This document shows, piece by piece, positions 13,792 to 61,430 of a stretch of DNA of 61,430 nt. A program made the translations under genes and the position numbers. Every line of letters starts with the position of its first letter. The stretch's first letter is position 1. The stretch is from IMG/VR virus record IMGVR_UViG_2663762648_000013. The stretch is one strand, 5' to 3'. The notes beneath the pieces were generated by a model. It had not been told where the DNA came from. It did not search any database and worked only from the letters and a program-made list of their open reading frames with translations. The DNA is from a virus. Its lineage: Duplodnaviria; Heunggongvirae; Uroviricota; Caudoviricetes.

Positions 13792-14267
13792 TCCGTTTCC
13801 GTCGGCGTGGACAGTACAAAGGAGGCACTCACCGCGCTCAGTTCGCTGCACTGCTCGATGCGCCAGCGGCTGATCACCTCCTGCTCCGGATCGGCGTCAC
13901 TGTTTCCGTTGACGAAGTTCACCGCATCCAGAAAACGGGCGTAAACCTTACGCCTGACCACCGTTCCGCCGACCAGACTCTGCAGGTCTTCCGCCATCCC
14001 GGTGACCATGCCGTGCAGATTAGAGACTTTCAGCGTTGGCCTTGCACTGGCACCTTTGCCGTTCATCTCAAATCCACTCCCCTGAATGGGATAGGCCTGA
14101 TACTGCCGACTCTGCCAGGTGACAGACTCTCCTTTCTCGTTCTGCTCATTGCAGAAAAAGTAGCGATCCCCGCCTACCTCGGTCAGGTCGATTTCCCAGA
14201 GCACCACGCTGGCCGACTGCTCCGCACGAATGCATTCATTCAGCGTTTCCTGTTGTATGTCCTGCAT
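13792..14267 (-). CDS. minor tail protein L, N-terminal part (second prophage; truncated at N 13791)
   Basis: Minus-strand [25 protein letters not shown]... Confidence 0.7.
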
Positions 14268-14605
14268 CAGATCACCACTTCGTCAAACTGACACGAAAAA
14301 TCGGTATAGGTGATATGTTCTGTCGCTGACCACGTTCGACACACCACTCTGATTTTTCTGTTAATACCCGGCGGGCGCCAAAAAAAAGATTTATAGCCTT
14401 CATGCCGGGCTAAAAATTTTTCAAATGAATCACGTTCATTCGCCTCAACTTTGAAATCACAGGTGAAAACGCGCAGAGAATGATTAAGTCCATTTGGACT
14501 TCGTTGCTCATAACCATCACCAAATCTTACAGTTTTTATCGATGGTTTATTTTCTGTTTTCATTCCATCCTCTGGTAACCAGTGAAATTCTTCCGTATTA
14601 GCCAC
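14267..14605 (-). CDS. minor tail protein M (lambda gpM-like)
   Basis: 112-aa ORF with FGDGYEQR motif; follows tape measure. Confidence 0.8.
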
Positions 14606-17600
14606 TTAACATTCCCCCATCACGTCGCATATTTAACAGATTGCCCTGCACCCGCTGATCAACCATCCCCATAAGTGCTTTTATTGCCTGAGGGCCAATC
14701 TCTCCATTCTGGCCGTCATTTTGAATAGTGATTTGGTATACAGGGGCATAGGTAATATCTCCGCCTCCATTACCACTTTTACTATTAATAGCTCTGACAC
14801 CAAGAGAACCATCGGAAGTTCGTGTTAATGGCATAATGGCTTCCGGTCCAGCCTCACCAAAAACACCAGCCCCTTTTGCAAAAGCAAAAAATTGCGGGGA
14901 ATCATAAATACCGTTCGAATACGTGCTCAATGACGGAGACTCATAAACACCGCCCTTTGCATTCGGAATAAATTTACTAATAGCACTCCCGATAGTTCCT
15001 AAAATCCCCCCAGAAGAACTGTTACTAATGCTGTCGAAAATCCCAGTAATTGAAGCCTTTAATGCTATTCGACTAAGATCCGAAATCACGGAAGTAGCGA
15101 AAGAACGAAAATTTGCCTTGCCTGTCGTGACAAAATCACCCAGCGCATCGGTCATCCCATCAAACATCTGAGTCGTGGTTGATTTTATCTGCTCACTGAT
15201 ATCCTTAGTGTCATCCAGCCAGTTATTGAATCCCTGGGAGGCACCACTAACCCAGTCTCCTGCCTGAATATCGAGCTGCTCGTTTTTCTGTCTGACAATT
15301 TCTTTTTCCCGTTCCAGAGCATCATTCAGAGCCTGCATTTTCTCTTGAAAAACATGATCTGACATTCCACGGGATTTATCTGCATAGTCACGTTCAAGTT
15401 GCAGACGCTGATTGTTATATCCATGTTCAATCCGCAGTAATTCCTGCTGGCGTTGCTGATTTTTATCGCCAACCCCATAACCAGCAATCTGAATATCATA
15501 CCCCTGCTGACGATTATCAATCGAAGCCTGCAATGAATCACGCCATGCTGTTATTTCGGCGGATTCCTTGATTAGCCTGTTATTTTTTTCAATCGCAACA
15601 TTTTTCTCCATCAACGTGGTTATTTCTTCCCGGTGTAAGAGAAGCGATTTCTGATCCTGGGTTAATTTCGATGATGGTCGTGACTCTAGGTCGGCAATCC
15701 GCTGACGCCACTTAACCAGTTCCTGTTCAGAGGAACTTAATTTAACGGTCAACTCAGCTTGTGAACTTAGTAACGCATTCTGTTGATTCAGATGATCAAT
15801 CATTCGTTGGGCTGCATCATCAGAATAACCTTTCGCCTTTGGTTGCTTTGGATCTTTATAACGCTCATTTATTTGAGCGATAAGATTATTATATTCTTCC
15901 TTTGAATACTGATTCTTTAGCTTTTCCAGTTTTGCAAGTTCACTAGCTCTCTGCTGCTCCCGGGTCTGATATTGTTTTGAAAAGGCATCTGCTCTCTGTC
16001 TGAGTTCAATTCCTTCCTGTTGTCGCTTGTTGTAATCGTTTATTGATGAATTTAGTACGTCCTGAGCAATTTTTTCTGCTTGAAGTACGCCCAATTGCTG
16101 CTTTAATCGTGCCAGCCTTTTATTTTGAGCTCCGCCATCTCCAATGCCACCTAACCCGAAAACTCCGGGTCGGGTATTTTTTTCTATTTCATCAATTTGA
16201 CGGAGAACATCTGAGATTTTTTGATCAAGGGAGGCCTCACGGCCAATATCCAGCATGGAATCCCATGCCCATTTTGCGGAGTCTGCGACAGCTTTCCATG
16301 CAGTCTCAAGATAACCAAGATTTTCTTTAATCTGGTTGGTGCGCTGGATCATTGAGGATGAGTATTCTTCTGTCGCAATGCGGGCGGCCTCCTGCTGGTT
16401 CCCTTCATCCTGTAGCGCCTTAATCTGGTTATAAGTCGCAAGTGTCAGAAAATGGTACTGATCATTAAGTTTTGATATGGCACTGACAGGATCCTTTGCA
16501 ATTTCATTGAAGTCATTAACCAGTTGTTCGGTTGATATTCCTGTTACTTCGCTCGTTTTTACTATCGCTGTCGTCACTTGCTCCAGCGAACTGCTCGCTA
16601 CCTTTCCCGAACGCACAAGCTGATTTAATACTGCCGCCGCAGCACCAGTTGTCGAATCAGCCGCATTCCCGGCACGTTGAGCTATATCGCCCAATTGCCC
16701 GCTGGTTGTCCCCAACTGATTTCCGGTAAGAATAAGAGATTTATTAAATTCGTCCTGCTCCTGAGAGCCTTTATAGTAAGCCAGTCCTAAGACCCCAACG
16801 GCTGCTGCGGCCAGGGTAAAAGGATTAATTAATCCCAGCACATAAGAACCTACACCTTTGATCGCCGGGCCAATCCCACCGAACATATCTTTTAGCTGGC
16901 CGCCCTGCTGCATTAACACCATAAATGGCGACTGACCAGTGGACAACCCAACAACAATATCCGTCATTTGTACAGGCAACATGCGCATAGCAAAAGCCGT
17001 TTGTTTTGCCGACATTCCGGTTTTGCTTAATTGTGATTGAGTAACCTCAAGCTCACTCCGCATAGCACGAAGTTTTCCAGAAAGCTCCTCATACATTTCA
17101 GGAGAAAGCATCCCCTTAGCTTTTGCTTCATTGAGCTGTTTCTGTTGTTCTACCAGACGATTAAAAGCAGTTCCGACAGGATCAAGTTGAGCAATCAGAC
17201 GTTGCAAAGCAACAACCTGTTCATCATGCGCTTTTGCTGCTTCTCGCTCTGCCTGAGCCTCTCCGGTAAGCTCTCGCCGTGTTTCCTGTATTTTTCGGCT
17301 ATAATTCTCAAACTGAGAACCATTTATTTTCCCGGATGCAAACGCAGCATTAAGTTCATCATGCTGTTGTTCAAGATTTCTTAGCGCCGCAGCCAGAGGG
17401 TCGATCTTGTCCAGCATTCTTTGAAAGGCCTGAGCCTGCGCTTCCTGCTGGGCGGCAGCAAGTTTTCCGGCCTTCTCGGCTTCTCTCTGCGCTTGCGCAA
17501 CCCCGCTCAATTCCTCTGTGGTTTCATTAAGTTTACGGACAAGAAATTCATATTCTTCTTTATCAATAAGCCCTTTATCGAAAAATTTCTTTAATTCAGA

Positions 17601-17831
17601 ATAGCGTCGACCGACAGTATCAATTGCGGCACCAACTGGATCAATAGCTGCTTTTAATTTTGCGAGCGCGTTCTTCTCATCTTCTGTTGCCTTAGTCACT
17701 TTCCCTGCGCTATTTGCAGCAGTTTCCCCAGCCTGCGTCATTTTGACTAATGAGGAGGTCAGATTGTCAGCATTATTTTTCGCTCCAGTGCTATCAATAA
17801 TTATTGCGAGACGCGAGGTTTGCTCTGCCAT
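14598..17831 (-). CDS. tail tape measure protein
   Basis: 1077-aa coiled-coil-rich ORF; SD GGAG upstream. Confidence 0.9.
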
Positions 17832-17852
17832 TTATTAAAACTCCTGACAACA

Positions 17853-17877
17853 AAAAACCCACCGCGAAGTGGGTTTC
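17853..17877 (-). terminator. terminator-like hairpin in spacer between T and tape measure genes
   Basis: Minus strand: aaacccac-ttcgcg-gtgggttt followed by TTTTTG. Confidence 0.35.
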
Positions 17878-17996
17878 AGGCGACATAATAGTAGATATAG
17901 CGATTACGAGGCCACGCAATGCTTTTCTCCAGGAGCATCATCGATTTAATTAAAGACACCATCACATCTCTGTAACAGAGTGTACGTAATTAACAA

Positions 17997-18766
17997 CTAC
18001 ACACACTGCTCCTGAAAATACTGGTCATCCAGTGCAAAGATCACTGCTTCAAATTCATCGCGCTCAATCAATACCGGATGAGTGGCTAAATATTCATTTA
18101 TCTCTGTCAGAGATAAAGGCAAAGGCACCCCAGCCATTCCAGCATAACGTCGGGCACGGGATATTACCGAATAGGCGTACAACAACTCCTTAAGCACCGG
18201 GTCTATTTCTGGTTCCGGTATCGGTGGCAACCTGAGTTTTTCTCGCTTCCATCTTGCCTTTTCCCCCCTTTCTCCCCCGAACTCCGATAACCACCGCTGG
18301 GCAGCTATGGCTTTTTTATCGTATCCTGCTTCTGCTGCTCTTTACCCTGGGCGATGCTGGCTGCTTCTGCAAGGATCTGCCAGTACAACTCTGGATTCTG
18401 CTTAAGCAGCGCGATCCCTCGTTCTGCCGTATATTCCAGTGCAACCTCAACACCATTAACCAGTTCACCAACCCCTTTCCAGTCTTTCAGCAGATAACGA
18501 GCGGCATTATCAATGAGTAAATCATCAACAGAATCCACCTCGGAAACCTTTGAAATATCAAACTCCTTCGTTCCGACGTGCAAACTGGCATCCATTTTCT
18601 CAATGTGGCGACGGATTAATGCATTACGGGAGCGATACTGATCGTTATCGCTGCTTGCCACCAACAGTTTTAACCCGTCTACAGGTTTTAAGTCCTTCAT
18701 TGGCGTAAACCAGCGTTCTCCACCAATGATAATTTTCTGATTAAGAATAAACATCCATAACCTCAT
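17997..18766 (-). CDS. tail assembly chaperone G-T fusion, predicted -1 frameshift at A_AAA_AAG (18311-18317)
   Basis: Hand translation shows the -1 frame is continuous from the heptamer into the downstream ORF ending at 17997. Confidence 0.6.
18305..18766 (-). CDS. tail assembly chaperone (gpG-like)
   Basis: 153-aa ORF ending ...ATA AAA AAG CCA TAG. Confidence 0.7.
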   Translation of the reverse strand: MRLWMFILNQKIIIGGERWFTPMKDLKPVDGLKLLVASSDNDQYRSRNALIRRHIEKMDASLHVGTKEFDISKVSEVDSVDDLLIDNAARYLLKDWKGVGELVNGVEVALEYTAERGIALLKQNPELYWQILAEAASIAQGKEQQKQDTIKKP

Positions 18767-18814: not shown

Positions 18815-19777
18815 TCAACTAATCGCCTCAGCACTGGCTTTTGCGATCACGGCAGCCGGGGAATTTTTTTTTCTGGTTATCGTAGGTGCTTCATCTGCTG
18901 CGGTAATGCTCAATTGAACCTGGATAATGTCGCTATTACCCCCATCAGGCCATTCACCTGACACCTGAACCTTCGGGAAACTGAAAGTGTATGCCCCCTC
19001 TCCATTCGAAAGCGTGAAGCTGAACGGAACTGTTTCTCCAGTCAGTGTTTTACTCCAGATTTCCCACGCGGCTTTAGACCATGAAAGCGTCACCGTACCG
19101 GACGGTGTAAAAGTAGTCGGAATATTTGCTCCTGCATAAGGCGAGCCAGTCCCGATACAACGCTGTGTCTGGAGTTTGTTATCGAACTGAATATCAAAAC
19201 TGTCGATACAAAAACCGTTACCTCCGGCAACACCATTCAGGCTTACTGCTGAAACCTCCTTAAACGAATAACGTAGCTTTCCTGCACTATCCACAGGTTC
19301 GCCTTTGATAAAATTCGTATCATCGGCCTTTGATTCCCAGTCCAGTCCGGCAAAGGTTACGGTCGCTGTAATATCGCCGTCGTTAGGGATCTGCATTTTC
19401 CATGAGCCAACCTGCGCTCCTCTGACGACAGAGGCAATTCCGACATCGGACGCATAGGTCGCCAGAGAAAATGTTATTCGCTCATTCCCCATTGTCAGAG
19501 AATCGCCTGACCATTCCGCGCCGAAACAGGATGCAAGAAAATCATCATGTTGACCCCAGCGAAATTTGGTACCAACATCACCGCCGACATCCACAGTGCC
19601 AGGCGTCGCCCCCTGAGCCATCCGGGAGCCACCAATCTCATTATTTTCGCCTTTATTCTGGGTGGGTTTTACTCCCCAGCTTGTGCGTTTTAATAAACTC
19701 CAGTCACCACTTGCTGGCGTAGTGCCTGCAACCGTCTCCCGGATAAATGCCGAGATAACCTTTGCACCTGAACTCAC
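18815..19777 (-). CDS. major tail protein (lambda gpV-like, with Ig-like C-terminus)
   Basis: 320-aa ORF; position between terminator protein and chaperone. Confidence 0.75.
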   Translation of the reverse strand: MSSGAKVISAFIRETVAGTTPASGDWSLLKRTSWGVKPTQNKGENNEIGGSRMAQGATPGTVDVGGDVGTKFRWGQHDDFLASCFGAEWSGDSLTMGNERITFSLATYASDVGIASVVRGAQVGSWKMQIPNDGDITATVTFAGLDWESKADDTNFIKGEPVDSAGKLRYSFKEVSAVSLNGVAGGNGFCIDSFDIQFDNKLQTQRCIGTGSPYAGANIPTTFTPSGTVTLSWSKAAWEIWSKTLTGETVPFSFTLSNGEGAYTFSFPKVQVSGEWPDGGNSDIIQVQLSITAADEAPTITRKKNSPAAVIAKASAEAIS

Positions 19778-19803: not shown

Positions 19804-20196
19804 CTAGAGCGCGCGATATGGAATTTGAAGATTAAGCTGGAACCAGCCATTCTTTTCGCCAACGGCTATTGAGGAAACAGCCTGGTAACTGAGACGATCG
19901 TCATCCTGAAACTCAAACAGTTCCCGCAATTTATCGGCTGTCTCAGTAATGAGTTTTGAACCAGAACCTGCGGGGACAAATAACTGAATAATGATTATCC
20001 CCGTGCGATAAACAACCGGCCCCGCGCCAATTTCATTAACTCCAGCCTGCCCGGGAATATTACTTAACCGCGCCCAGATTAACTTACCGGAAGGATCGAA
20101 CGTTGGCCCGTTCGGATACAATACGTCTTTTCCATCAATAATCGTCTGTGCCGTCATTCTGGAAATAACCGTATTTCTGATTTCAGTAAACTTCAT
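19804..20196 (-). CDS. tail terminator protein (gpU-like)
   Basis: 130-aa ORF in conserved position. Confidence 0.5.
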   Translation of the reverse strand: MKFTEIRNTVISRMTAQTIIDGKDVLYPNGPTFDPSGKLIWARLSNIPGQAGVNEIGAGPVVYRTGIIIIQLFVPAGSGSKLITETADKLRELFEFQDDDRLSYQAVSSIAVGEKNGWFQLNLQIPYRAL

Positions 20197-20573
20197 TTGT
20201 AAGCCTGTAAAACACCATGAAAAGCGTTGGCATACACGCCAGTTGGCGCTTGTTGTGAATGACCGTTTTCAAGAGCCTCTGCATAAGGAAGGTTATTCTG
20301 GATATAAATAACCCCGTAATTTGCAGCTTTCGAAATAACCCCGATCCCACGCTGAACAGCAATCGTACCGTTCGGATCCACGTTATCAGATATACCAAAA
20401 TCGGGATGCTGTAACGACACCAGGTTGTTATTTCTGAAACGTCCGGTATCAACCGGAGCAGCAATATCAATAGCAGTAAGAATCTGCATAGCGATGTAGC
20501 GAATCTTCAGCCCTACATCTTCCTCAATCATCCCGGCAAATATTGACGGTTCTATATCCCATGCCTTTGCCAT
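20193..20573 (-). CDS. HK97 gp10-family tail completion protein
   Basis: 126-aa ORF with PVDTGRFRNN motif typical of the gp10 family. Confidence 0.55.
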   Translation of the reverse strand: MAKAWDIEPSIFAGMIEEDVGLKIRYIAMQILTAIDIAAPVDTGRFRNNNLVSLQHPDFGISDNVDPNGTIAVQRGIGVISKAANYGVIYIQNNLPYAEALENGHSQQAPTGVYANAFHGVLQAYK

Positions 20574-20957
20574 TTACGCTCTCCTTAACTGGATAGAGTA
20601 AACTGATGCGGAAGGATCTACACTTGCTGTAATTACCTCGTATCGTTGTAACTGCCTTGATACAGGATCATAAATCTCAATAATATGGTCGACAGCTGGT
20701 TTATCCGTAACCTCGCATACCAGAGCGGTTAATTTAAGGTCACCATGCAAAATATTAATCCCATCAATTCTGCCCAGCTTATAACGTGTCAACACGCCTC
20801 GCCCGGTATAGATTGCGGTGGATTCGCCGCCAGTTTCCGTCACAGGATCCCAGTGCCGGTGCGTAACGTAAGAACCAGAAAAATCACTCACGGCGTCCGC
20901 TAAATCCTCATCAAAAGCAGCGGCAACCTCTGACTGAATCTCTTCACGAAGCCCCAT
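20574..20957 (-). CDS. head closure / head-tail joining protein
   Basis: 127-aa ORF; assignment by position. Confidence 0.45.
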   Translation of the reverse strand: MGLREEIQSEVAAAFDEDLADAVSDFSGSYVTHRHWDPVTETGGESTAIYTGRGVLTRYKLGRIDGINILHGDLKLTALVCEVTDKPAVDHIIEIYDPVSRQLQRYEVITASVDPSASVYSIQLRRA

Positions 20958-21352
20958 TATCCCCCCCTCACAACCCTGACTTGTGAGCGACTAAGTCCGT
21001 ACGGTTTCAGCAGTGCTATCGCAAGCTGTAAATCGGGTTCAAGCAATGCAGTGCTGTTTGCTGGCAACTCAGAAAATGATTTCGATACACTGACCCCGTC
21101 AGCCGACACGGCTTTACTGATAACAACGCCAGAATCATTTTTCTGCTGAAACAACTTACCGAATGAGGCAATTCTGGCTGCATATGCTCCCGCAAGTTTT
21201 ACCTCTTCCGGAATACGGGATGGGTTAATTTTCAGGTTGAAGCCATTAAGCCAGGCATTAGCCATTAAAACAGCTTTATTTTTAGCGTTCTCACTCGTCC
21301 AGGCGTTCCCAAACGCATTATCAACGTCATCACAGGTCACGTAAGTGATCAT
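20957..21352 (-). CDS. head-tail connector protein
   Basis: 131-aa ORF; assignment by position. Confidence 0.4.
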   Translation of the reverse strand: MITYVTCDDVDNAFGNAWTSENAKNKAVLMANAWLNGFNLKINPSRIPEEVKLAGAYAARIASFGKLFQQKNDSGVVISKAVSADGVSVSKSFSELPANSTALLEPDLQLAIALLKPYGLSRSQVRVVRGG

Positions 21353-21355
21353 GTG

Positions 21356-21532
21356 TTACTCCTGAGTTTTCCAGCCCATAGCCTTCCAGTTGTCAACTTC
21401 ATCAGGATGAACATTAGCGATAGTTGGTGCGCCGGGAAACATCTGATAATCGGTCACCATAACCACTAACTCAATTTGCGTTTTTTGTGCGGCTTCACGC
21501 TGTGCTCTTTGCTCTTTAGTTAATCCGGCCAT
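21356..21532 (-). CDS. small hypothetical head-region protein (58 aa)
   Basis: Hand-translated MAGLTKEQRAQREAAQK...WKTQE; below the ORF-track size cutoff; fills the gap between capsid terminator and connector gene. Confidence 0.3.
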   Translation of the reverse strand: MAGLTKEQRAQREAAQKTQIELVVMVTDYQMFPGAPTIANVHPDEVDNWKAMGWKTQE

Positions 21533-21574: not shown

Positions 21575-22714
21575 TTAACCAAGAATCAGACAACCATGTG
21601 CCGGCTTCACTGATGAAACACCCCATGCCAGTCCAACTTCATAGCGCACCTGGCGATACTGACGATACAGTGCAATCTGGAACGTAATCCCTGAAATCGG
21701 GTCCGTAACATTCATTACATCATCAGCATTATCGCCACCTTCCGGCATTGCCGGAGTACGGGATGCCAGCAGAAACGCGTTGCGATCAAACGCCATATTT
21801 GCAGTAAAGGCCCCAACAACTGTGATGGCAGTATCATCGGCCAGATCCTGACGCAGTCCGGGCGCTGCAAGAGTAATCAGATTGCTGGTCGCTGCTGCCA
21901 CAACATACTGATTCGGATCACCAGCGAACGTAACAATCTGACCTGCAGAAATACTCCCCGAACCAGTATCAATGGAAATAAGAACATCGCCTTCTTTTTT
22001 CTCTCCATTCACGAGATAACCAGTTGCAGCAACCTTTGGCGCTCGTTTCACACCTGCCGAACTGTGAATATTGAATCCCTCCAGACGCCCCAACACGCCC
22101 TCACGCAGTAGCTGTTCAGTGCCGGATTCATTCACTTTAAACAATACAGACTGTTTTCCGCGCAAATTAGCAATGGCAGTGGAGCCAAGCACCATCTGCA
22201 GATCGGTTGTCGGTGCGCCGTTATCCTCCAGAACCTGACGAGCCAGAGCAGCATCAGAAAGATCATCTTTAACACCAAACGGCGTTGTCCCTGCGGTTCC
22301 CACGGCGCGGGAAGCACCGAAATACAACGCACCAAGATCAGCCTCAACCTCGTTTGCAAGGGCGCGAAAAGCCTGCTTGAACTGATCAGCCAGAATGGTG
22401 TTGTAAGTCCCTGAAGGGCCAAGAGCCAGTTGTTCTTCACCATTCCATTTAACCGGTGCCATTTTGGATTTAGTAATTTTTACATCAACAGTGCCAATAT
22501 TTTGATCACCGGTATTCGGAGCTGACGGCCCCGGTACGATATCTTCGGTTTTCGCCTCAGGCGCAACTGGCGCGGTTACCGTCTGATCTTTTGCTGCGGC
22601 GTCAGCTTTTGCGTTTTTTGCTACCGCAGGGATAAAACCTACCTGCTCACGGGATACAACATCCAGGGCGGTATAAATAGTCGGGATCAACCCGGTCAGG
22701 GTATTTCCAGCCAT
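21575..22714 (-). CDS. major capsid protein
   Basis: ORF 21575-22807; start set to ATG 22714 preceded by AAGGAA SD; position after scaffold. Confidence 0.7.
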   Translation of the reverse strand: MAGNTLTGLIPTIYTALDVVSREQVGFIPAVAKNAKADAAAKDQTVTAPVAPEAKTEDIVPGPSAPNTGDQNIGTVDVKITKSKMAPVKWNGEEQLALGPSGTYNTILADQFKQAFRALANEVEADLGALYFGASRAVGTAGTTPFGVKDDLSDAALARQVLEDNGAPTTDLQMVLGSTAIANLRGKQSVLFKVNESGTEQLLREGVLGRLEGFNIHSSAGVKRAPKVAATGYLVNGEKKEGDVLISIDTGSGSISAGQIVTFAGDPNQYVVAAATSNLITLAAPGLRQDLADDTAITVVGAFTANMAFDRNAFLLASRTPAMPEGGDNADDVMNVTDPISGITFQIALYRQYRQVRYEVGLAWGVSSVKPAHGCLILG

Positions 22715-49228: not shown

Positions 49229-49234
49229 GGTCCG

Positions 49235-51009: not shown

Positions 51010-51010
51010 N

Positions 51011-51635: not shown

Positions 51636-51641
51636 GGTCAG

Positions 51642-52499
51642 TTACCCCCTGAAGCCTGGCGGGATCGCACTATCCGGTAACGAGACGGTGTTAACCTGTC
51701 GGAGTAACGTCTCAGGTCGAACACCTTTCGGCGCGAACAAGCCCTGGTATTCATTGGCGATGCTGTGTCGAATCACCTGCTCAGGTGAAAAACCCTGCTG
51801 GCGGAATTTTTCCAGCTCCCGTATCGCCCCGTTAGCGCCCTGCTCCGTTCGAATCGGTTTTCGCAATGCCTGGCGAAATTCAACCCACTCACGCCAAAGC
51901 GAGACAGAAATCCAGTTCGGCAAAGCAATATCCAGAGGGTCAAACTTTTTGACACCTCGATTCCCCCGGGGGGGATTTAGGGGGGGATCTGTTTTTAGAT
52001 CTTTATCTGTATCTTTATTAGTTGCCTTTGTGTTGACATCATGTTCAAACACCACTTCAACATCTGTTTGAACACCTGTTAAATTTCTCTCTTGTTTTGT
52101 TTGAACATCTGCTTCCTTTCTGCTTCTTCTGGCCTGAACAGATGCTTTTCCTGCGGCTGATTTTTTGGTTAATTTTTCCCTGACTGATGCCAGATCTTCC
52201 TCAATCCGAAGATGCACCCATTCCTCGCCGTTATCGCAAAAAAACTCCTGCAAGGATGGTTCAACATCAGCCCATCGCTCGTTAGTCAGACGGGCAATTT
52301 TTGCCAGCCTGTTTTTAGGTATTGGCTTTCCTGTTTGCCAGTAATTGAACATCAGCAACAAATACGCACCATGCTCCTCTGCTGACAAATGCATGGTGTC
52401 AGCCAGGTAATCAGCTATGTACAGTTGCATGTATGGTAATGCGGCCATAATTGCCCCGTATGATGCTGCCCGGTGGCTTAGAATAAGCACAAACAGCAT
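51642..52499 (-). CDS. ydaU: replication protein YdaU-like (DUF1376 N-terminus plus DnaT-like C-terminus)
   Basis: 285-aa ORF; position between ydaT-like and DnaC-like genes as in Rac. Confidence 0.75.
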   Translation of the reverse strand: MLFVLILSHRAASYGAIMAALPYMQLYIADYLADTMHLSAEEHGAYLLLMFNYWQTGKPIPKNRLAKIARLTNERWADVEPSLQEFFCDNGEEWVHLRIEEDLASVREKLTKKSAAGKASVQARRSRKEADVQTKQERNLTGVQTDVEVVFEHDVNTKATNKDTDKDLKTDPPLNPPRGNRGVKKFDPLDIALPNWISVSLWREWVEFRQALRKPIRTEQGANGAIRELEKFRQQGFSPEQVIRHSIANEYQGLFAPKGVRPETLLRQVNTVSLPDSAIPPGFRG

Positions 52500-52511
52500 G
52501 GAAACTTTTGC

Positions 52512-52934
52512 TTAATGAACAATGACAGAATCGTCGGAAGACCCGCCGCCGCTGAAATGCGCTTTCCGGTAAACGGCTTGGACTGCATCATCATGCGCAT
52601 CAATTGCCGTACTTAACGCTTCCTGCGCCGCCAGTAATGCACGGCGTTCCAGGGTATCGAAGATGCAGAGTCGGTGACGCAGCTCGCGCGGAAGGATTGC
52701 CAGAATTGCTGGGATCAGCTTCTGAATTTTTTCTCTTTGCGTTTTCGTTTCACCTTTCAACCAACGGTGATAGATATTCTGCTGATTATTCCAGTCCTTG
52801 CCTGGTACCAGGGGCAATTCGCCGCCCCCCTGGCGCAGATATTCTTCAGTAATGGCATTGGCTACCCATGCCTGCCCTTTTTCGGCTGCCAGGGCTAACA
52901 ACACTGACTCGATGTGCTCATGCTTGATTTTCAT
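52512..52934 (-). CDS. ydaT: YdaT-like protein
   Basis: 140-aa ORF downstream of Cro-like gene. Confidence 0.65.
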   Translation of the reverse strand: MKIKHEHIESVLLALAAEKGQAWVANAITEEYLRQGGGELPLVPGKDWNNQQNIYHRWLKGETKTQREKIQKLIPAILAILPRELRHRLCIFDTLERRALLAAQEALSTAIDAHDDAVQAVYRKAHFSGGGSSDDSVIVH

Positions 52935-53185
52935 GAATCAACTCCCATCAGCTTTTTCGTAGTAGTTTTATTTCTGCCAATAGTTAAAATTACATCAGCA
53001 GAAAATAATCCGTTTGATGCATGAGCGATTTTTTCAGCGTAATTTGTTTCGCCGGTATATTCTGTGCGAGGCAATTTTCCGTTATCCATCCATTTGTAGA
53101 TTGCTCTTTGGCTGACACCACAAACGTCGGCCACAACAGAAACGCGAACAGTTTTGATTACATCTTCAAGTGTTTTCTGGTTCAT
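52931..53185 (-). CDS. ydaS: Cro-like HTH regulator (YdaS-like)
   Basis: ORF 52931-53257 trimmed to ATG 53185 preceded by GAGGGTGA; divergent from racR. Confidence 0.6.
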   Translation of the reverse strand: MNQKTLEDVIKTVRVSVVADVCGVSQRAIYKWMDNGKLPRTEYTGETNYAEKIAHASNGLFSADVILTIGRNKTTTKKLMGVDS

Positions 53186-53246
53186 ATCACCCTCACAATG
53201 TGAACTTTGAGTACATGCTATAACAGAACTGACAGTACATTCAAGA

Positions 53247-53684
53247 GTGAATATCATTGAACTTATGGTTCATGAAGATAAAGCGCGTAAAGAGTTCGCC
53301 AGTAGGCTTGCGCTAGCCTGTGAAAACGCTGGTTATGAACAACATGGAAGGCAGGCAGAAATTGCCCGTCGAATGAAATTAACACCAAAAGCGGTTAGCA
53401 AATGGTTTAATGGCGAAACAATTCCTCGCCGAGAGAAATTAAGGGAATTAGCAACACTCATTGGAACAACACCAACCTATCTTTTGGGAGAGGATACAGA
53501 AGAAAGTGGACAGGTACGTTTCTATCAGGAGTTAAATCCAAGACAAAAAATCATCATTGACCTTCTGGACGAGCTCCCTGACAGTGAGACAGATGAACTT
53601 TTAAAAACTCTTGAGGAGAAAAAACAGAAGTACAATGCAATTTACGAAGAGCTAGCACGAAAGAAAAAACAAAAAGCCTCTTAA
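53247..53684 (+). CDS. racR: prophage repressor (RacR-like, XRE-type HTH)
   Basis: 145-aa ORF with HTH (QAEIARRMKLTPKAVSKW), divergently arranged with cro-like gene. Confidence 0.7.
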   Translation: MNIIELMVHEDKARKEFASRLALACENAGYEQHGRQAEIARRMKLTPKAVSKWFNGETIPRREKLRELATLIGTTPTYLLGEDTEESGQVRFYQELNPRQKIIIDLLDELPDSETDELLKTLEEKKQKYNAIYEELARKKKQKAS

Positions 53685-53974
53685 ACCAGCATAAATCCGG
53701 TAGCGTCCCCCTCCGGGTTTGTGCTTCACTTTATCCCATCTCATTTTTTTACACACAAAATGTACTTATAGTACTTTACATCAATGAACACAAAGTACAT
53801 TATATACCTACCAACCCACCCCGCCCCACAGAACGCAGGGCAATACTTCGAGTTACCAGGCAGTGGTCAGGGGTTAAGTAGCCAGCCCGAGGCGTATGAA
53901 CATGACGGCAGGGTTCAGATTTTGCAGTGCAGCAGGTTTCAGTTCCGCCACCCGGCGTTAAGGGGAGAGATAAG

Positions 53975-54109
53975 ATGGTGCATTACGAAGTAGTTCAGTA
54001 TTTGATGGATTGTTGCGGTATCACTTACAACCAGGCTGTGCAGGCTTTACGCAGCAACGACTGGGATCTCTGGCAGGCAGAAGTCGCTATACACAGCAAC
54101 AAGATGTGA
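53975..54109 (+). CDS. ydaG: small Rac protein (YdaG-like, 44 aa)
   Basis: ATG 53975 preceded by AAGGGGAGAG; ORF 53927-54109 in track. Confidence 0.45.
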   Translation: MVHYEVVQYLMDCCGITYNQAVQALRSNDWDLWQAEVAIHSNKM

Positions 54110-54119
54110 GATTCGCAAA

Positions 54120-54275
54120 ATGCAAAAAATCGACCTCGGCAACAACGAATCCCTGGTGTGCGGCGTGTTCCCCAACCAGGATGGAACGTTCACTGCCATG
54201 ACGTATACCAAAAGCAAAACATTTAAAACCGAAACTGGTGCGCGCCGATGGTTGGAGAAGCACACAGTAAGCTAA
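54120..54275 (+). CDS. ydaF: small Rac protein (YdaF-like, 51 aa)
   Basis: Hand-translated MQKIDLGNNESLVCGVF...; weak SD; convergent with sieB. Confidence 0.4.
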   Translation: MQKIDLGNNESLVCGVFPNQDGTFTAMTYTKSKTFKTETGARRWLEKHTVS

Positions 54276-54760
54276 CGATTAAAACGTCTACTCCTGCTGT
54301 TCCAGAATAACTTCATAAAATGGGAGTATTTTTCGGTGACGAGATAATAAGAACAGTTTGCGCTATCACTCTGATGTTGAATGATGCCCTTCCGTTCTAA
54401 TTTTTTCATAACCGGGTTACGGCAAGGAGAAGTGATAATAAGATTTCCTGTTTTAAGGAAATCTTTAAATACAGCGATTTCTTTCTCAGATAAACGAAGC
54501 AATACTCGTTGCTCTGGTAGTAATGAATAATGCTTTTGAATATGTGCTCGCAATCTTGAGAAGGAAATGGCGACCACGAAAGAAAAGGCAAAAACGATAA
54601 TCTGAAAGAGCCAAGGTATTTCAGTATAAGCATTGAATGCGACAGTAAACTCTTTCGGTATCAGCCAGAGAGTGAGACCAAAAATGATAATCGTATACAT
54701 AAGTATTTCGAGTGGCTCGTTAGCAAAAAGTTTCAACAATGGAGTAAATACATCCAACAT
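54272..54760 (-). CDS. sieB: superinfection exclusion protein B
   Basis: ORF 54272-54883 trimmed to internal ATG giving 162 aa (MLDVFTPLLKLFANEPLE...); membrane helices. Confidence 0.8.
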   Translation of the reverse strand: MLDVFTPLLKLFANEPLEILMYTIIIFGLTLWLIPKEFTVAFNAYTEIPWLFQIIVFAFSFVVAISFSRLRAHIQKHYSLLPEQRVLLRLSEKEIAVFKDFLKTGNLIITSPCRNPVMKKLERKGIIQHQSDSANCSYYLVTEKYSHFMKLFWNSRSRRFNR

Positions 54761-55201
54761 ATCAATAACTCTCAACTGTAAGGGTATTGAAATGTTAACA
54801 CAAGCTCTCGCTGTAGGGGTATAGCCGAGACCACCGAAGCCCGGAGGTGGTGAAATAAAACCGGGCACAACACGAAGGCGCATTTCCGATATCCATAAAG
54901 AGTCGGTCTTGTCTGTTAAATTTAAATGGTGGGAGTGCGCCTCCGGTTGTAAATAACGACATTGCTGTGTGTAGTCCTGGCGGCATCAGTTTTTTTCTTG
55001 AAGTTCGGCTGATGTCCGCCCTTTTTAAAGTGAATTTTGTGATGCGGTGAATGCGGCTAAGCGCACGTGGCACAGTTAAAAGTCATGTTAGTCCTTATTG
55101 GTTTGGGTGGGAAAGCCGACTGTAATTGTTAACTGGTTGCAGTCACCTGGAGGCACCAGGCACCGCATCAACAAAGTTCATTTGTAAAAATGGAGATAAT
55201 T

Positions 55202-55423
55202 ATGATTGCACATCACTTCGGAACTGATGAAATACCACGTCAGTGTGTGACTCCTGGCGATTATGTTCTTCATGAAGGCCGGACATATATTGCCTCGGCA
55301 AACAATATTAAAAAGCGAAAACTATATATTCGTAACCTGACCACAAAAACATGCATTACTGACCGCATGATTAAAGTCTTCCTCGGTCGTGATGGTTTAC
55401 CTGTAAAGGCGGAGTCATGGTGA
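55202..55423 (+). CDS. kilR: FtsZ-inhibiting killing protein KilR
   Basis: 73 aa from ATG 55202 ([14 protein letters not shown]...) with GGAG SD. Confidence 0.75.
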
Positions 55424-55593
55424 TGACTAAGAAAATAAAATGTGCTTACCACCTTTGCAAAAAAGACGTTGAAGAAAGCAAAGCTATTGAAAGAATGCTT
55501 CACTTCATGCACGGGATTTTATCAAAAGACGAACCGAGAAAATATTGCAGTGAAGCTTGTGCCGAAAAAGACCAGATGGCACATGAACTTTAA
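55423..55593 (+). CDS. ydaE: small Cys-rich protein YdaE-like (56 aa)
   Basis: Hand-translated [14 protein letters not shown]...CSEACAEKDQMAHEL; ATG overlaps kilR stop (TGATG). Confidence 0.55.
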   Translation: MTKKIKCAYHLCKKDVEESKAIERMLHFMHGILSKDEPRKYCSEACAEKDQMAHEL

Positions 55594-55667
55594 TTAATTG
55601 ACTATTCGAAACTGAATTTATGCCAGAAATGGCAGGTATTCGCTCAACCTTAATTAAGGAGAAAAAC

Positions 55668-55943
55668 ATGATTACCAATTATGAAGCCACTGTTGTAACT
55701 ACCGATGACATTGTTCACGAGGTGAATCTGGAAGGAAAGCGCATTGGCTACGTAATTAAAACAGAAAATAAAGAAACCCCATTCACTGTGGTTGATATCG
55801 ATGGTCCATCAGGCAACGTAAAAACACTTGATGAAGGTGTCAAAAAAATGTGCCTGGTGCATATCGGAAAGAATCTGCCCGCAGAAAAAAAAGCCGAATT
55901 TCTGGCAACTCTAATTGCAATGAAATTAAAAGGTGAAATCTGA
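55668..55943 (+). CDS. racC: RacC
   Basis: ORF 55620-55943 trimmed to ATG 55668 preceded by AAGGAG; 91 aa. Confidence 0.65.
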   Translation: MITNYEATVVTTDDIVHEVNLEGKRIGYVIKTENKETPFTVVDIDGPSGNVKTLDEGVKKMCLVHIGKNLPAEKKAEFLATLIAMKLKGEI

Positions 55944-56044
55944 AAGAAATAGCCTGCGTATGGCGCAGGCTATGAACAGTGTGTATCCGGCAAGATCATT
56001 CACTGAACAAAACGAATTTTAATCTGAGTTGAGGTTAAAAAACA

Positions 56045-58645
56045 ATGAGCACAAAACCACTCTTCCTGTTACGGAAAGCGAAAAAATCATCCGGTGAACC
56101 TGACGTCGTCCTGTGGGCAAGCAACGATTTTGAATCGACCTGTGCCACTCTGGACTACCTGATCGTTAAGTCAGGTAAAAAACTGAGCAGCTATTTTAAA
56201 GCTGTTGCCACGAATTTTCCTGTCGTTAATGACCTGCCCGCTGAAGGTGAGATCGATTTTACCTGGAGTGAACGCTATCAACTCAGCAAAGACTCCATGA
56301 CATGGGAACTAAAACCGGGAGCAGCACCAGACAACGCTCACTATCAAGGCAATACCAACGTCAACGGCGAAGACATGACTGAGATTGAGGAGAATATGCT
56401 ACTCCCAATTTCTGGCCAGGAACTGCCCATTCGTTGGCTTGCTCAACACGGCAGCGAAAAACCGGTAACGCACGTTTCACGCGACGGACTCCAGGCATTA
56501 CACATTGCTCGGGCTGAAGAACTACCGGCTGTTACTGCCCTGGCTGTTTCCCACAAAACCAGCCTGCTCGACCCGCTGGAAATTCGCGAACTCCACAAAC
56601 TGGTTCGTGACACTGACAAAGTTTTCCCTAATCCTGGTAATTCAAACCTGGGACTGATAACTGCTTTTTTCGAAGCATACCTGAACGCTGACTACACCGA
56701 TCGAGGACTGCTGACAAAAGAGTGGATGAAGGGTAATCGTGTTTCACACATCACTCGCACGGCTTCCGGTGCTAATGCTGGCGGCGGAAACCTCACCGAT
56801 CGCGGCGAAGGTTTCGTACACGATCTGACGTCACTGGCGCGGGACGTAGCCACTGGCGTACTGGCCCGTTCAATGGATCTGGACATCTATAACCTTCATC
56901 CGGCACACGCTAAACGCATTGAGGAAATTATCGCTGAAAATAAACCGCCCTTTTCTGTTTTCCGCGACAAATTCATCACCATGCCTGGCGGGCTGGATTA
57001 TTCCCGCGCCATCGTGGTTGCGTCCGTAAAAGAAGCACCAATTGGGATCGAGGTCATCCCCGCGCACGTCACTGAATATCTGAACAAAGTACTGACTGAA
57101 ACCGATCATGCCAACCCTGATCCGGAAATCGTGGATATTGCCTGCGGTCGCTCCTCTGCCCCGATGCCGCAGCGAGTAACAGAAGAAGGAAAACAGGATG
57201 ATGAAGAAAAACCGCAACCATCTGGAACAACGGCAGTTGAACAGGGAGAGGCTGAAACAATGGAACCGGACGCAACTGAACATCATCAGGACACGCAGCC
57301 GCTGGATGCTCAGTCACAGGTAAATTCTGTTGATGCGAAATATCAGGAACTGCGGGCAGAACTCCATGAAGCCCGGAAAAACATTCCATCAAAAAATCCT
57401 GTCGATGCCGATAAATTGCTTGCTGCATCACGTGGTGAATTTGTTGACGGAATTAGCGACCCGAACGATCCGAAATGGGTAAAGGGGATCCAGACTCGCG
57501 ATTGTGTGTACCAGAACCAGCCAGAAACGGAAAAAACCAGCCCGGATATGAATCAACCTGAGCCAGTAGTGCAACAGGAACCGGAAATAGCCTGCAATGC
57601 CTGCGGCCAGACTGGCGGGGATAACTGCCCTGACTGTGGTGCGGTGATGGGCGACGCAACATACCAGGAAACATTCGATGAAGAGAGTCAGGTTGAAGCT
57701 AAGGAAAATGATCCGGAGGAAATGGAAGGCGCTGAACATCCGCACAATGAGAATGCTGGCAGCGATCCGCATCGCGATTGCAGTGATGAAACTGGCGAAG
57801 TCGCAGATCCCGTAATCGTAGAAGACATAGAGCCAGGTATTTATTACGGAATTTCGAATGAGAATTACCACGCGGGTCCCGGTGTCAGTAAGTCTCAGCT
57901 CGATGACATTGCTGATACTCCGGCACTGTATTTGTGGCGTAAAAATGCCCCCGTGGACACCACAAAGACAAAAACGCTCGATTTAGGAACCGCTTTCCAC
58001 TGCCGGGTACTTGAGCCGGAAGAATTCAGTAACCGCTTTATCGTAGCACCTGAATTTAACCGCCGGACAAACTCCGGAAAAGAAGAAGAGAAAGCGTTTC
58101 TGAGGGAATGCGCAAGCACAGGAAAAACGGTTATCACTGCCGAAGAAGGCCGGAAAATTGAACTCATGTATCAGAGCGTTATGGCTTTGCCGCTGGGGCA
58201 ATGGCTTGTTGAAAGCGCCGGACACGCTGAATCATCAATTTACTGGGAAGATCCTGAAACAGCAATTTTGTGTCGGTGCCGTCCGGACAAAATTATCCCT
58301 GAATTTCACTGGATCATGGACGTGAAAACTACGGCGGATATTCAACGATTCAAAACCGCTTATTACGACTACCGCTATCACGTTCAGGATGCATTCTACA
58401 GTGACGGTTATGAAGCACAGTTTGGAGTGCAGCCAACTTTCGTTTTTCTGGTTGCCAGCACAACTATTGAATGCGGACGTTATCCGGTTGAAATTTTCAT
58501 GATGGGCGAAGAAGCAAAACTGGCAGGTCAGCTGGAATATCACCGCAATCTGCGAACCCTGGCTGACTGCCTCAATACCGATGAATGGCCAGCTATTAAG
58601 ACGTTATCACTGCCCCGCTGGGCTAAGGAATATGCAAATGACTAA
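56045..58645 (+). CDS. recE: exodeoxyribonuclease VIII (RecE)
   Basis: 866-aa ORF; gene order recE-recT. Confidence 0.9.
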
Positions 58646-59447
58646 GCAACCACCAATCGCAAAAGCCGATCTGCAAAAAACTCAGGGAAACCGTGCACCA
58701 GCAGCAATTAAAAATAACGACGTGATTAGTTTTATTAACCAGCCATCAATGAAAGAGCAACTGGCAGCAGCTCTTCCACGCCATATGACGGCTGAACGTA
58801 TGATCCGTATCGCCACCACAGAAATTCGTAAAGTTCCGGCGTTAGGAAACTGTGACACTATGAGTTTTGTCAGTGCAATCGTACAGTGTTCACAGCTCGG
58901 ACTTGAGCCCGGTAGCGCCCTCGGTCATGCATATTTACTGCCTTTTGGTAATAAAAACGAAAAGAGCGGTAAAAAAAACGTTCAGCTAATCATTGGCTAT
59001 CGCGGCATGATTGATCTGGCTCGCCGTTCAGGTCAAATCGCCAGCCTGTCAGCCCGTGTTGTCCGTGAAGGTGACGAGTTTAATTTCGAATTTGGCCTTG
59101 ATGAAAAGTTAATACACCGCCCAGGAGAAAACGAAGATGCCCCTGTTACCCACGTCTATGCTGTCGCAAGACTGAAAGACGGAGGTACTCAGTTTGAAGT
59201 TATGACGCGCAAACAGATTGAGCTGGTGCGCAGCCAGAGTAAAGCTGGTAATAACGGGCCGTGGGTAACTCACTGGGAAGAAATGGCAAAGAAAACGGCT
59301 ATTCGTCGCCTGTTCAAATATCTGCCCGTATCAATTGAGATCCAGCGTGCAGTATCAATGGATGAAAAGGAACCACTGACAATCGATCCTGCAGATTCCT
59401 CTGTATTAACCGGGGAATACAGTGTAATCGATAATTCAGAGGAATAA
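58638..59447 (+). CDS. recT: recombinase RecT
   Basis: ORF 58581-59447 trimmed to ATG 58638 ([13 protein letters not shown]...), overlapping recE stop. Confidence 0.9.
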
Positions 59448-59502
59448 TTCAGCCTGGCGGTGTAATGCACCGCCAACTTGAAATATTTTTATGAGAAAAA
59501 TT

Positions 59503-59652
59503 ATGAGATATGACAATGTTAAACCATGTCCATTTTGTGGTTGTCCATCAGTAACGGTGAAAGCCATTTCAGGATATTACCGAGCGAAGTGTAACGGATG
59601 CGAATCCCGAACCGGTTATGGTGGAAGTGAAAAAGAAGCACTCGAACGATGA
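59503..59652 (+). pseudogene. ralR: ralR-like toxin gene with premature in-frame TGA (49 codons)
   Basis: MRYDNVKPCPFCGCPSV...EKEALER then TGA at 59650-59652; the same frame continues ...NKRTTGNNNGGVHV to TAA 59695-59697. Confidence 0.45.
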
Positions 59653-59689
59653 AATAAACGAACCACTGGAAATAATAATGGAGGTGTTC

Positions 59690-59878
59690 ATGTATAAAAT
59701 TACCGCCACTATTGAAAAGGAAGGTGGCACTCCTACTAACTGGACAAGATATTCAAAATCTAAACTAACGAAATCAGAATGCGAAAAAATGCTCTCAGGT
59801 AAAAAAGAAGCAGGCGTTTCCAGAGAGCAGAAAGTAAAACTGATAAATTTTAATTGCGAGAAACTTCAGTCCTCGTGA
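59690..59878 (+). CDS. ydaC: YdaC-like protein (62 aa)
   Basis: ATG 59690 preceded by GGAGGTG; ORF 59618-59878 in track. Confidence 0.6.
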   Translation: MYKITATIEKEGGTPTNWTRYSKSKLTKSECEKMLSGKKEAGVSREQKVKLINFNCEKLQSS

Positions 59879-59977
59879 ATTGCATTGTATTCAAATTAAA
59901 ACTTCATAGCTGATTATTAATAATCAACATCGGGCGTCAATTTAAGTCTAACATTGGCGCCTGCCAGAGGTGATGCG

Positions 59978-60193
59978 ATGGCACAAGTAATCTTTAATGA
60001 AGAGTGGATGGTTGAATACGGCCTGATGCTTCGCACTGGTCTGGGGGCCAGACAAATTGAAGCATACCGCCAGAACTGTTGGGTGGAAGGCTTCCACTTC
60101 AAACGAGTATCTCCTTTAGGGAAGCCAGACAGTAAGCGAGGGATTATCTGGTATAACTATCCAAAGATAAATCAGTTTATCAAAGACTCATGA
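59978..60193 (+). CDS. xisR: excisionase (XisR-like)
   Basis: ORF 59954-60193 trimmed to [10 protein letters not shown]...; directly upstream of integrase. Confidence 0.7.
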
Positions 60194-60194
60194 T

Positions 60195-61430
60195 ATGTCT
60201 AAATTACCAACAGGTGTCGAGATTCGAGGTAAATACATTCGCATCTGGTTCATGTTTCGAGGAAAACGATGTCGGGAAACATTGAAAGGCTGGGAGGTTA
60301 CTAACAGTAACATTAAAAAAGCCGGGAATTTAAGAGCGTTGATAGTTCATGAAATCAATTCCGGTGAGTTTGAGTATTTAAGACGTTTTCCCCAGTCCAG
60401 CACTGGGGCAAAAATGGTGACAACGAGGGTCATAAAAACGTTCGGGGAGCTTTGTGATATCTGGACAAAAATTAAAGAAACAGAGTTAACAACAAACACA
60501 ATGAAGAAAACGAAATCACAATTAAAAACACTCAGGATAATAATTTGTGAGAGTACTCCGATATCGCATATTCGTTATAGCGATATCTTAAACTACCGGA
60601 ATGAACTGCTGCATGGAGAAACGCTTTACCTGGATAATCCAAGATCCAACAAAAAAGGAAGAACCGTGCGCACAGTTGATAACTATATCGCCCTGCTCTG
60701 TTCGTTGTTACGTTTTGCGTATCAGTCGGGATTTATATCAACCAAACCATTTGAAGGAGTAAAGAAATTACAGAGAAACAGAATAAAGCCTGACCCGTTA
60801 TCTAAAACAGAATTCAATGCATTAATGGAAAGTGAAAAAGGACAGAGCCAGAACTTGTGGAAATTTGCCGTATACTCCGGGCTTCGTCACGGGGAACTGG
60901 CTGCTCTGGCGTGGGAGGATGTGGATTTCGAGAAGGGAGTTGTGAATGTCAGAAGAAACCTGACGATACTGGATATGTTCGGTCCCCCAAAAACAAATGC
61001 GGGGATCCGGACGGTAACACTACTGCAGCCTGCTCTTGAAGCACTGAAGGAGCAATACAAACTGACCGGGCATCATCGCAAAAGCGAAATCACTTTTTAT
61101 CATCGGGAGTACGGCAGAACCGAAAAGCAAAAACTGCATTTTGTTTTCATGCCCAGAGTGTGTAACGGAAAACAGAAACCTTATTACTCGGTAAGCAGTT
61201 TGGGTGCGAGATGGAATGCAGCAGTAAAACGTGCTGGTATTCGCCGCCGTAATCCGTACCATACGCGGCATACTTTTGCCTGCTGGCTGTTGACGGCAGG
61301 AGCGAACCCGGCGTTTATAGCCAGCCAGATGGGGCATGAAACTGCGCAGATGGTGTATGAAATTTACGGTATGTGGATTGATGACATGAACGACGAACAG
61401 GTAGCCATGTTGAATGCGCGGTTATCGTAG
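60195..61430 (+). CDS. intR: tyrosine-type prophage integrase (IntR-like)
   Basis: 411-aa ORF; C-terminal catalytic region with HTRHTFA...Y signature. Confidence 0.9.
   Translation: MSKLPTGVEIRGKYIRIWFMFRGKRCRETLKGWEVTNSNIKKAGNLRALIVHEINSGEFEYLRRFPQSSTGAKMVTTRVIKTFGELCDIWTKIKETELTTNTMKKTKSQLKTLRIIICESTPISHIRYSDILNYRNELLHGETLYLDNPRSNKKGRTVRTVDNYIALLCSLLRFAYQSGFISTKPFEGVKKLQRNRIKPDPLSKTEFNALMESEKGQSQNLWKFAVYSGLRHGELAALAWEDVDFEKGVVNVRRNLTILDMFGPPKTNAGIRTVTLLQPALEALKEQYKLTGHHRKSEITFYHREYGRTEKQKLHFVFMPRVCNGKQKPYYSVSSLGARWNAAVKRAGIRRRNPYHTRHTFACWLLTAGANPAFIASQMGHETAQMVYEIYGMWIDDMNDEQVAMLNARLS

Follow-up and report, generated by a model that had tools for sequence, protein, structure and literature searches.

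The Rac prophage is described in a review as incomplete in Escherichia coli K-12 and intact in EDL933 (PMC6379469), and several relatives are on record: KingRac, a 46,834-bp prophage at ttcA that is mitomycin-inducible, forms virions seen by electron microscopy and replaced the K-12 Rac prophage in the mouse gut (Frazao et al. 2019, PMC6731689); Sp10 and CP-933R, both at ttcA in O157:H7, which reportedly retain the machinery for replication and, after excision, infect K-12 (PMC4632033); and full-sized Rac-like prophages that encode the LT-II toxin (PMC5917428). Here we examine a window of 61,430 nucleotides (nt), the IMG/VR record IMGVR_UViG_2663762648_000013, which corresponds, with identical coordinates, to positions 1-61430 of a draft whole-genome shotgun scaffold of 72,851 nt (GCA_001261315.1, CXFX01000005.1) and consists of E. 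coli DNA; this record was the sole public match to two ORFs peculiar to the window. It carries a Rac-like element, which we read, at a probability of roughly 85%, as an unexceptional Rac-like lambdoid prophage of full length, integrated at ttcA and caught in a fragmented scaffold. Full-length, inducible prophages of this sort have already been published, the structural arm recurs in several deposited prophage records, and the element is of a known kind; its likeness to KingRac, Sp10/CP-933R and the LT-II phages is one of description (full-sized, Rac-related, lambdoid, at ttcA), and the cargo of that group differs, as in the LT-II toxin genes.

Seventeen K-12 proteins (IntR, XisR, RcbA (YdaC), RalR, RecT, RecE, RacC, YdaE, KilR, SieB, YdaF, YdaG, YdaT, YdaU, YdaV, RzoR and TrkG) are matched in the window at 96-100% amino-acid (aa) identity and in K-12 order. 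The same holds, for identity and order alike, of three K-12 remnants, YnaK (aa 1-86), YdaY and YnaA (aa 1-312). At the DNA level K-12 Rac (NC_000913.3, 1411899-1434958) aligns to the window in four colinear blocks (Table 1). The integration junction is likewise shared: record bases 61376-61635, of which 205 lie beyond the window, are identical at 258 of 260 positions to the K-12 intR-attL-ttcA junction, and the gene after it encodes a 311-aa PP-loop protein (PF01171), that is, ttcA. The Rac-like element sits at the 5' end of ttcA, beside intR and xisR. These alignments bear out the Rac-type early gene content and order that the initial annotation, made from the letters of the sequence, had likened to K-12. 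Its gene list holds for the early arm, ydaT, ydaU, ydaV and trkG and fails for racR and ydaS: neither RacR nor YdaS has a tblastn match in the window at E≤1e-3, and a different cI-like/cro-like pair stands in that place, which predicts heteroimmunity of the element towards K-12 Rac. Both attachment sites lie outside the window: attL follows in the record, and a blastn-short search for attR gave only chance matches of 12-14 nt; attR, in a ttcC' fragment, would be expected past the tail fibres, on another scaffold.

Beyond the K-12 gene set, the initial annotation had called for an alignment to intact Rac-like prophages. The Rac-like prophage of NCTC10444 (NZ_LR134092.1, ~2.716-2.764 Mb, at ttcA) matches positions 13792-41957 at 99.66% (28.2 kb) and 51011-61430 at 99.97% (10.4 kb), with the proteins from the M-like minor tail protein to IntR 97-100% identical to those of the window. 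The packaging, head, four connector, tail-tube, chaperone, tape-measure and M-like genes are present at full length, each with 99.7-100% identity to its counterpart in NCTC10444, and the terminase, portal and capsid genes that had been noted at the outset are among them; the nin/Q genes (a DUF1133 Q-like antiterminator, YbcO and DUF1367) and a complete lysis cassette of the S21/R21/Rz/Rz1 type (PF04971, PF00959, PF03245 and an embedded Rz1) were recovered too, at full length and the same level of identity. Every coding sequence from the M-like gene to intR that lies inside a contig is full length, and no disruptive mutation was found within any contig. The description of the prophage as apparently intact is accurate for each of these genes and lacks support in this sequence for the region as a whole, which is not one continuous sequence. 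NCTC10444, in contrast, is continuous, with a single DUF977-DUF1627-ydaV-ydaU set and a full L-K-I-J-lom-fibre set, whereas the window is broken, and carries extra repeat contigs, at just these two places.

Structurally, the window contains eight single Ns (9459, 10985, 12442, 12519, 13791, 42392, 45815 and 51010), each of them at the exact spot where the sequence stops being colinear with a complete reference genome. The window is accordingly a scaffold assembled from nine contig pieces, here numbered S1 to S9, of 9458, 1525, 1456, 76, 1271, 28600, 3422, 5194 and 10420 nt. Three of the Ns (42392, 45815 and 51010) split 14267-61430 into four contig pieces, and the five others crowd into 9459-13791. 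The contig termini sit within sequences that are found again elsewhere in the window, which is the pattern expected of a short-read assembly breaking at repeats. The genes inside the contigs are intact; since the tail-tip and replication modules fall in the joins between short repeat contigs, the intactness of these two modules, hence inducibility, is not readable from the window. Some points weigh against a fragmented but ordinary prophage. A single N is a known placeholder in SSPACE/GapFiller-type pipelines, on which the GapFiller paper makes no statement, and we infer that a scaffolder or gap closer placed those seen here. The sequence is known as an assembly, and a real rearrangement is formally possible. 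Finally, the last 434 nt of S6 hold a DUF1627/ydaV allele unlike those of S9 and NCTC10444, and S6 and S9 lack an exact overlap, so that the link between the two arms rests on other genomes and not on the sequence of the window.

This last point raises the question of whether S6, with the structural arm, and S9, with the int-recET arm, come from two different lambdoid prophages that only the scaffolder brought together, in which case the prophage at ttcA might be a short K-12-like remnant. The two arms do lie on different contigs, which, taken literally, is what the initial annotation had named as grounds for its refutation. The DUF1627 and ydaV products at the end of S6 share just 72.7% and 77% aa identity with those of NCTC10444, the best match of this DNA in complete genomes reaches only 93%, and modules reassort: of the 5426 complete E. 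coli genomes, 670 (~12%) have at least 80% of 14267-36000 in a single location, while the full early arm together with the cargo is found in only 11; the potB prophage of CFT073 also has similar structural genes at another site (PMC4632033). Against an origin in two prophages, however, in those 11 complete genomes (NCTC10444 and 10 more) the same cargo/nin region is continuous with the same early arm, at 99.2-99.3% identity; in NCTC10444, one prophage at ttcA has counterparts of both arms at 99.7-99.97%; and the remnants that K-12 keeps at ttcA, namely trkG, ynaK, ydaY and ynaA, are all on S6. Furthermore, S7 has the character of an NCTC10444-like bridge, its first 986 nt being identical to S6 40271-41256 before the two diverge. 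We consider two separate source prophages unlikely; because complete genomes carry both arms joined, and because the K-12 remnants all lie on S6, the arms likely belong to one prophage, a view the complete genomes still favour despite the contig break.

Between DUF1627 and the ydaV of S9 stand three N joins and two repeat contigs, S7 and S8. The QueH-Zn-ribbon-DUF977-ydaV stretch of S8 corresponds to a module of another lambdoid prophage, and an IS600 insertion sequence (49897-51009, plus strand) is cut off at the S8 end, with its first 39 nt present also at 45776-45814. A single junction in this region has no N: at 48809-48818 two sequences meet on an overlap of exactly 10 nt, AACATCAGCC, creating a 346-aa in-frame open reading frame (48188-49228, minus strand) in which YdaV aa 1-~140 is fused to YdaU aa 77-285. 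By default, GapFiller merges two extensions once they overlap by at least 10 nt (PMC3446322), and the length of the overlap thus fits a false gap closure; the YdaV::YdaU frame is probably that, and not a real gene. The arrangement of 42392-51010 occurs in none of the 5426 complete genomes, where the best coverage is 69%, and the ydaV copies differ mutually by 2-5%. That all these extra pieces truly lie inside the prophage, as an array of partial replication modules (the YdaV::YdaU fusion included) left by recombination among resident prophages and by IS600, and that a tail-to-tail junction with an HK97-type prophage is real as well, we regard as scarcely credible.

Apart from these readings, we also weighed whether the replication region had simply been duplicated in tandem, and rejected this: the differences between the copies amount to 2-28%, their neighbours are not the same (QueH, IS600), and the junctions, with one exception, fall on Ns. 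The IS600 copy lies in an alternative replication-initiator gene and is cut off at two contig ends. The QueH (epoxyqueuosine reductase) homologue (45816-46436, minus strand) belongs to a lambdoid early-region module that is common to prophages of FDAARGOS_944, strain 042 and APEC O1.

At the other end of S6, the full tail gene set announced in the initial annotation did not materialize: within 14267-61430 there is no tail gene beyond the M-like one, L is cut at aa 158 just outside, and a complete K, a continuous I-J, lom, the side fibre and fibre assembly genes, and stfR, tfaR and pinR were not found there. A Rac-type tail tip is present only as the separate contig S2 (K'-I-J'), with the body of J outside the window. 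At the left end of the window, S1 belongs to a second, HK97-type lambdoid prophage (prophage B), whose head-proximal part begins mid-gene at the scaffold start and which contributes a prohead protease fragment, major capsid, connectors, tape measure (4817-8062), M, L (8396-9094) and K aa 1-122. S1 is 98.6% identical to a prophage of JP538 that adjoins zinT, and in both JP538 and APEC 102026 prophage B lies ~0.6-0.7 Mb from the Rac-like prophage, the two having the same relative orientation as in the window. Four short contigs with L, K, I or J' sequence separate S1 from S6 in alternating orientation, and they sort into two convergent paths. S5 is the true continuation of S1, judging from an 18-nt overlap in register between the S1 end and the S5 start, and its I protein is 96% identical to that of JP538 prophage B. 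S2 has the antisense orientation of S6, and its I protein is 99.5% identical to the NCTC10444 Rac-like one versus 76% to that of prophage B. The L, K and I copies of S3 are 93-96% identical to those of S1, S2 and S6, and S3 probably derives from another lambdoid prophage. A scaffolder that joined two contigs through common tail repeats offers the best explanation of the tail-to-tail adjacency.

Were the order of the window physically real, it would represent a rearranged defective prophage that holds partial replication copies and an IS600 fragment, has its tail fused to a second prophage and has lost J and the fibres. The record itself gives the pieces in that order, IS600 is present and IS elements promote rearrangements, the related strain 08_3323 has an IS3-family element in ydaU and IS600 near recT, and the 10-nt microhomology at 48809-48818 could equally be a product of illegitimate recombination. 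Yet all other discontinuities fall exactly on Ns, the tail-gene junctions are crowded within 4.4 kb in alternating orientation, and the pieces resolve cleanly into two paths, one B-type in sense and the other Rac-type in antisense orientation; fusing both prophages, moreover, would remove the ~0.6-0.7 Mb of chromosome between inverted sequences, and the arrangement is absent from the complete genomes surveyed. A physically real order is, in our estimation, very unlikely. An inversion between the two prophages was also tried as an explanation and rejected: after such an event each prophage would run on into K-I-J in the sense orientation, and the two tail ends would not meet. Under the preferred account of one ordinary prophage in a broken scaffold, short-read contigs would have ended where the lambdoid prophages of the strain share near-identical modules (tail L-K-I-J and ydaU/ydaV), and the scaffolder would have placed variant repeat contigs into the gaps, producing a false junction with prophage B and apparent extra copies of replication genes. 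In draft scaffolds, joins made of a single N can pass for an amplified gene, a palindromic rearrangement or the adjacency of unrelated prophages, and any duplication, inversion or truncation at the N positions of this window is to be treated as a feature of the assembly.

Evolutionarily, the comparison with K-12 is instructive. K-12 Rac shares with the window the ttcA junction, the intR-ydaG early-left operon (98.7% DNA identity) and, in the same order, ydaT/U/V, Rz1, trkG, the ynaK N-terminus, ydaY and ynaA, but lacks the nin/Q region, holin, endolysin, the genes from terminase to tail tube and most of the tape measure; the immunity pair differs, and the K-12 genes stfR, tfaR, pinR and ynaE have no counterpart in the window. 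Three K-12 proteins mark the scars of this loss: YdaW is the DUF1627 N-terminus (aa 1-151) fused to a C-terminal fragment of Rz, YnaK corresponds to residues 1-86 of the 262-aa ParB-like protein with a join to ydaY, and YnaA to residues 1-312 of the tape measure. K-12 Rac is thus derived from a phage of this type by three deletions, from DUF1627 to Rz, from the ParB-like gene to ydaY and from the tape measure to lom. The window provides a clean map of these deletions and explains ydaW, ynaK and ynaA as fusion or truncation scars; its wider importance is small, full-length Rac-like prophages being common, and excision, particle formation and the replacement of K-12 Rac in vivo having already been demonstrated for them. 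Jobling in 2016 reportedly described LT-II-encoding Rac-like prophages, as far as the author's 2018 letter relays it.

Functionally, by homology to lambdoid phages, IntR and XisR would mediate integration and excision at ttcA, and the cI-like/cro-like pair would form a switch whose immunity specificity is unlike that of K-12 Rac. A leftward operon would express kilR, ydaE, racC, recET and ralR, and a rightward one the cII-like YdaT, the O-like YdaU and the DnaC-like YdaV. The Q-like antiterminator would then switch on a late operon with the pinholin, a signal-anchor-release (SAR) endolysin and Rz/Rz1 for lysis, trkG as cargo, the ParB-like/TAGT pair, and the terminase, portal, capsid and tail genes, so that the terminase would drive packaging into a P22-type head bearing a non-contractile tail of the lambda type. 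In common with the phage 21 lysis cassette, the window has a 71-aa PF04971 holin with an MKSM dual start, a 165-aa lysozyme whose N-terminal segment is Gly/Ala-rich, as is typical of SAR endolysins, and an Rz with an embedded lipoprotein Rz1, and we take the holin and endolysin to be closely similar to S21 and R21 in sequence; the SAR character of the endolysin is suggested by its N-terminal sequence.

Table 1. Contig pieces, joins, K-12 Rac alignment blocks and annotated features of the 61,430-nt window (HTH, helix-turn-helix).
Feature	Position	Strand	Remarks
S1	1-9458	+	HK97-type lambdoid prophage B; outside the Rac-like element
N join S1/S2	9459	.	colinearity break
S2	9460-10984	-	Rac-like-type tail tip: J aa 1-108, complete I (182 aa), K aa 51-247
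N join S2/S3	10985	.	single N
S3	10986-12441	+	third allele: L aa 72-232, K, I aa 1-74
N, S4, N	12442-12519	.	N 12442; 76-nt K-gene fragment, antisense; N 12519
S5	12520-13790	+	prophage-B-type K aa 110-247, I (190 aa), J aa 1-85
N join S5/S6	13791	.	single N
S6	13792-42391	-	28.6 kb; late, nin and cargo arm of Rac-like prophage
N join S6/S7	42392	.	single N
S7	42393-45814	-	hypothetical gene N-terminal half (second copy), DUF977, DUF1627, ydaV, alternative initiator fragment, IS600 first 39 nt
N join S7/S8	45815	.	single N
S8	45816-51009	-	QueH, Zn-ribbon protein, DUF977 allele, ydaV allele, ydaU aa 77-285; then ydaV aa 1-~140, alternative initiator fragment, IS600
N join S8/S9	51010	.	single N
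S9	51011-61430	- then +	int-recET arm of Rac-like prophage, ydaV to intR
K-12 Rac block	16897-18656		ydaY-ynaA; 99.9% DNA
K-12 Rac block	30214-32644		rzpR/rzoR-trkG-ynaK; 99.2% DNA
K-12 Rac block	51011-52940		ydaV to ydaT; 99.4% DNA
K-12 Rac block	53809-61430		ydaG to intR; 98.7% DNA
Minor tail protein L, aa 1-158	13794-14267	-	cut by contig end (13792)
M-like minor tail protein	14267-14605	-	full length
Tape measure, 1077 aa	14598-17831	-	K-12 ynaA is its first 312 aa
Tail assembly chaperone region	17997-18230; ydaY 18305-18664	-	K-12 ydaY 100% identical; phrog_313/phrog_290 cover chaperone and tail tube
Tail tube	18815-19777	-	phrog_313/phrog_290 cover chaperone and tail tube
Tail terminator, tail completion, head closure, head-tail adaptor, 58-aa protein	19804-21532	-	phrog_179, 169, 161, 493, 1514
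P22-type major capsid	21575-22714	-	99.7-100% to NCTC10444
Scaffold protein	22813-23577	-	99.7-100% to NCTC10444
Head morphogenesis protein	23682-24797	-	99.7-100% to NCTC10444
Portal	24778-26184	-	99.7-100% to NCTC10444
TerL	26187-27488	-	99.7-100% to NCTC10444
TerS	27469-28563	-	99.7-100% to NCTC10444
TAGT-family glycosyltransferase, 310 aa	28754-29686	-	PF20691; overlaps ParB-like gene
ParB_N-domain protein, 262 aa	29679-30467	-	PF02195; K-12 ynaK is its first 86 aa
trkG, potassium transporter	30605-32062	-	99.6% to K-12 TrkG; between lysis and packaging genes, as in K-12
Rz	32200-32664	-	PF03245; lysis cassette
Rz1, 61 aa	32259-32444	-	embedded in Rz; 98% identical to RzoR
Putative SAR-type endolysin, 165-aa lysozyme	32661-33158	-	PF00959; Gly/Ala-rich N-terminus
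Phage-21-type pinholin, 71 aa	33158-33373	-	PF04971; MKSM dual start
Two TolA C-terminal-domain genes	33625-34599	-	PF06519; between Q and holin
Q-like antiterminator	35644-36186	-	DUF1133/Phage_antitermQ; domain match
YbcO nuclease	36183-36473	-	domain match
DUF1367	36473-37072	-	domain match
DUF1971 protein, TehB-like	37862-38224	+	low-GC cargo
Two proteins, 333 and 320 aa	38845-39846; 39862-40824	-	phrog_16994, phrog_17908; no Pfam-level function
DUF977; divergent DUF1627 allele; divergent ydaV C-terminal fragment	41023-42391 (DUF1627 41455-42198)	-	S6 end
ydaV, aa ~1-208	51011 onward	-	S9 start, cut by contig end; 97.7% aa to K-12
ydaU, O-like initiator	51642-52499	-	99.6% aa to K-12
ydaT, cII-like	52512-52934	-	99.3% aa to K-12
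cro-like HTH, 84 aa	52931-53185	-	at K-12 ydaS/racR position
cI-like repressor, 139 aa	53265-53684	+	HTH_3; not the K-12 racR allele
Early-left operon: ydaG, ydaF, kilR, ydaE, racC, recE, recT, ralR, rcbA/ydaC	53975-59878	+	97.7-100% aa to K-12; 100% to NCTC10444
sieB	54272-54760	-	within early-left region
recE	56045-58645	+	early-left operon
recT	58638-59447	+	early-left operon
ralR	59503-59652	+	early-left operon
rcbA/ydaC	59690-59878	+	early-left operon
xisR	59978-60193	+	K-12 match
intR	60195-61430	+	K-12 match; window ends at intR stop codon

In the early-left operon, ralR stops after 49 codons (64 in K-12) and rcbA/ydaC after 62 (69 in K-12); the alignment of each to K-12 continues past one stop, and the same short alleles are annotated in NCTC10444. 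Among the cargo genes, the glycosyltransferase of the TET-associated family and the ParB-like protein are encoded as a pair directly upstream of the small terminase gene and may constitute a phage DNA-modification module. In other lambdoid phages the position between Q and holin is occupied by toxin or tRNA cargo; here it holds the two TolA C-terminal-domain proteins, paralogues of 131 and 142 aa that are 28% identical. A tRNA scan of the whole window revealed no tRNA gene. A PADLOC scan gave no match for the low-GC cargo, the TolA-like genes, sieB, ralR or ydaY, its sole match linking the ParB domain of 29679-30467 to the N-terminal region of a methyltransferase model. Lastly, the stretch from 37000 to 41000, between the nin genes and DUF977, is a cargo island of low GC content (33-41%). 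In the deposited relative ON470595 this position is taken by other genes, whose annotated products are an FtsH-like protein and an S8 peptidase; the island thus looks like a variable cargo slot.

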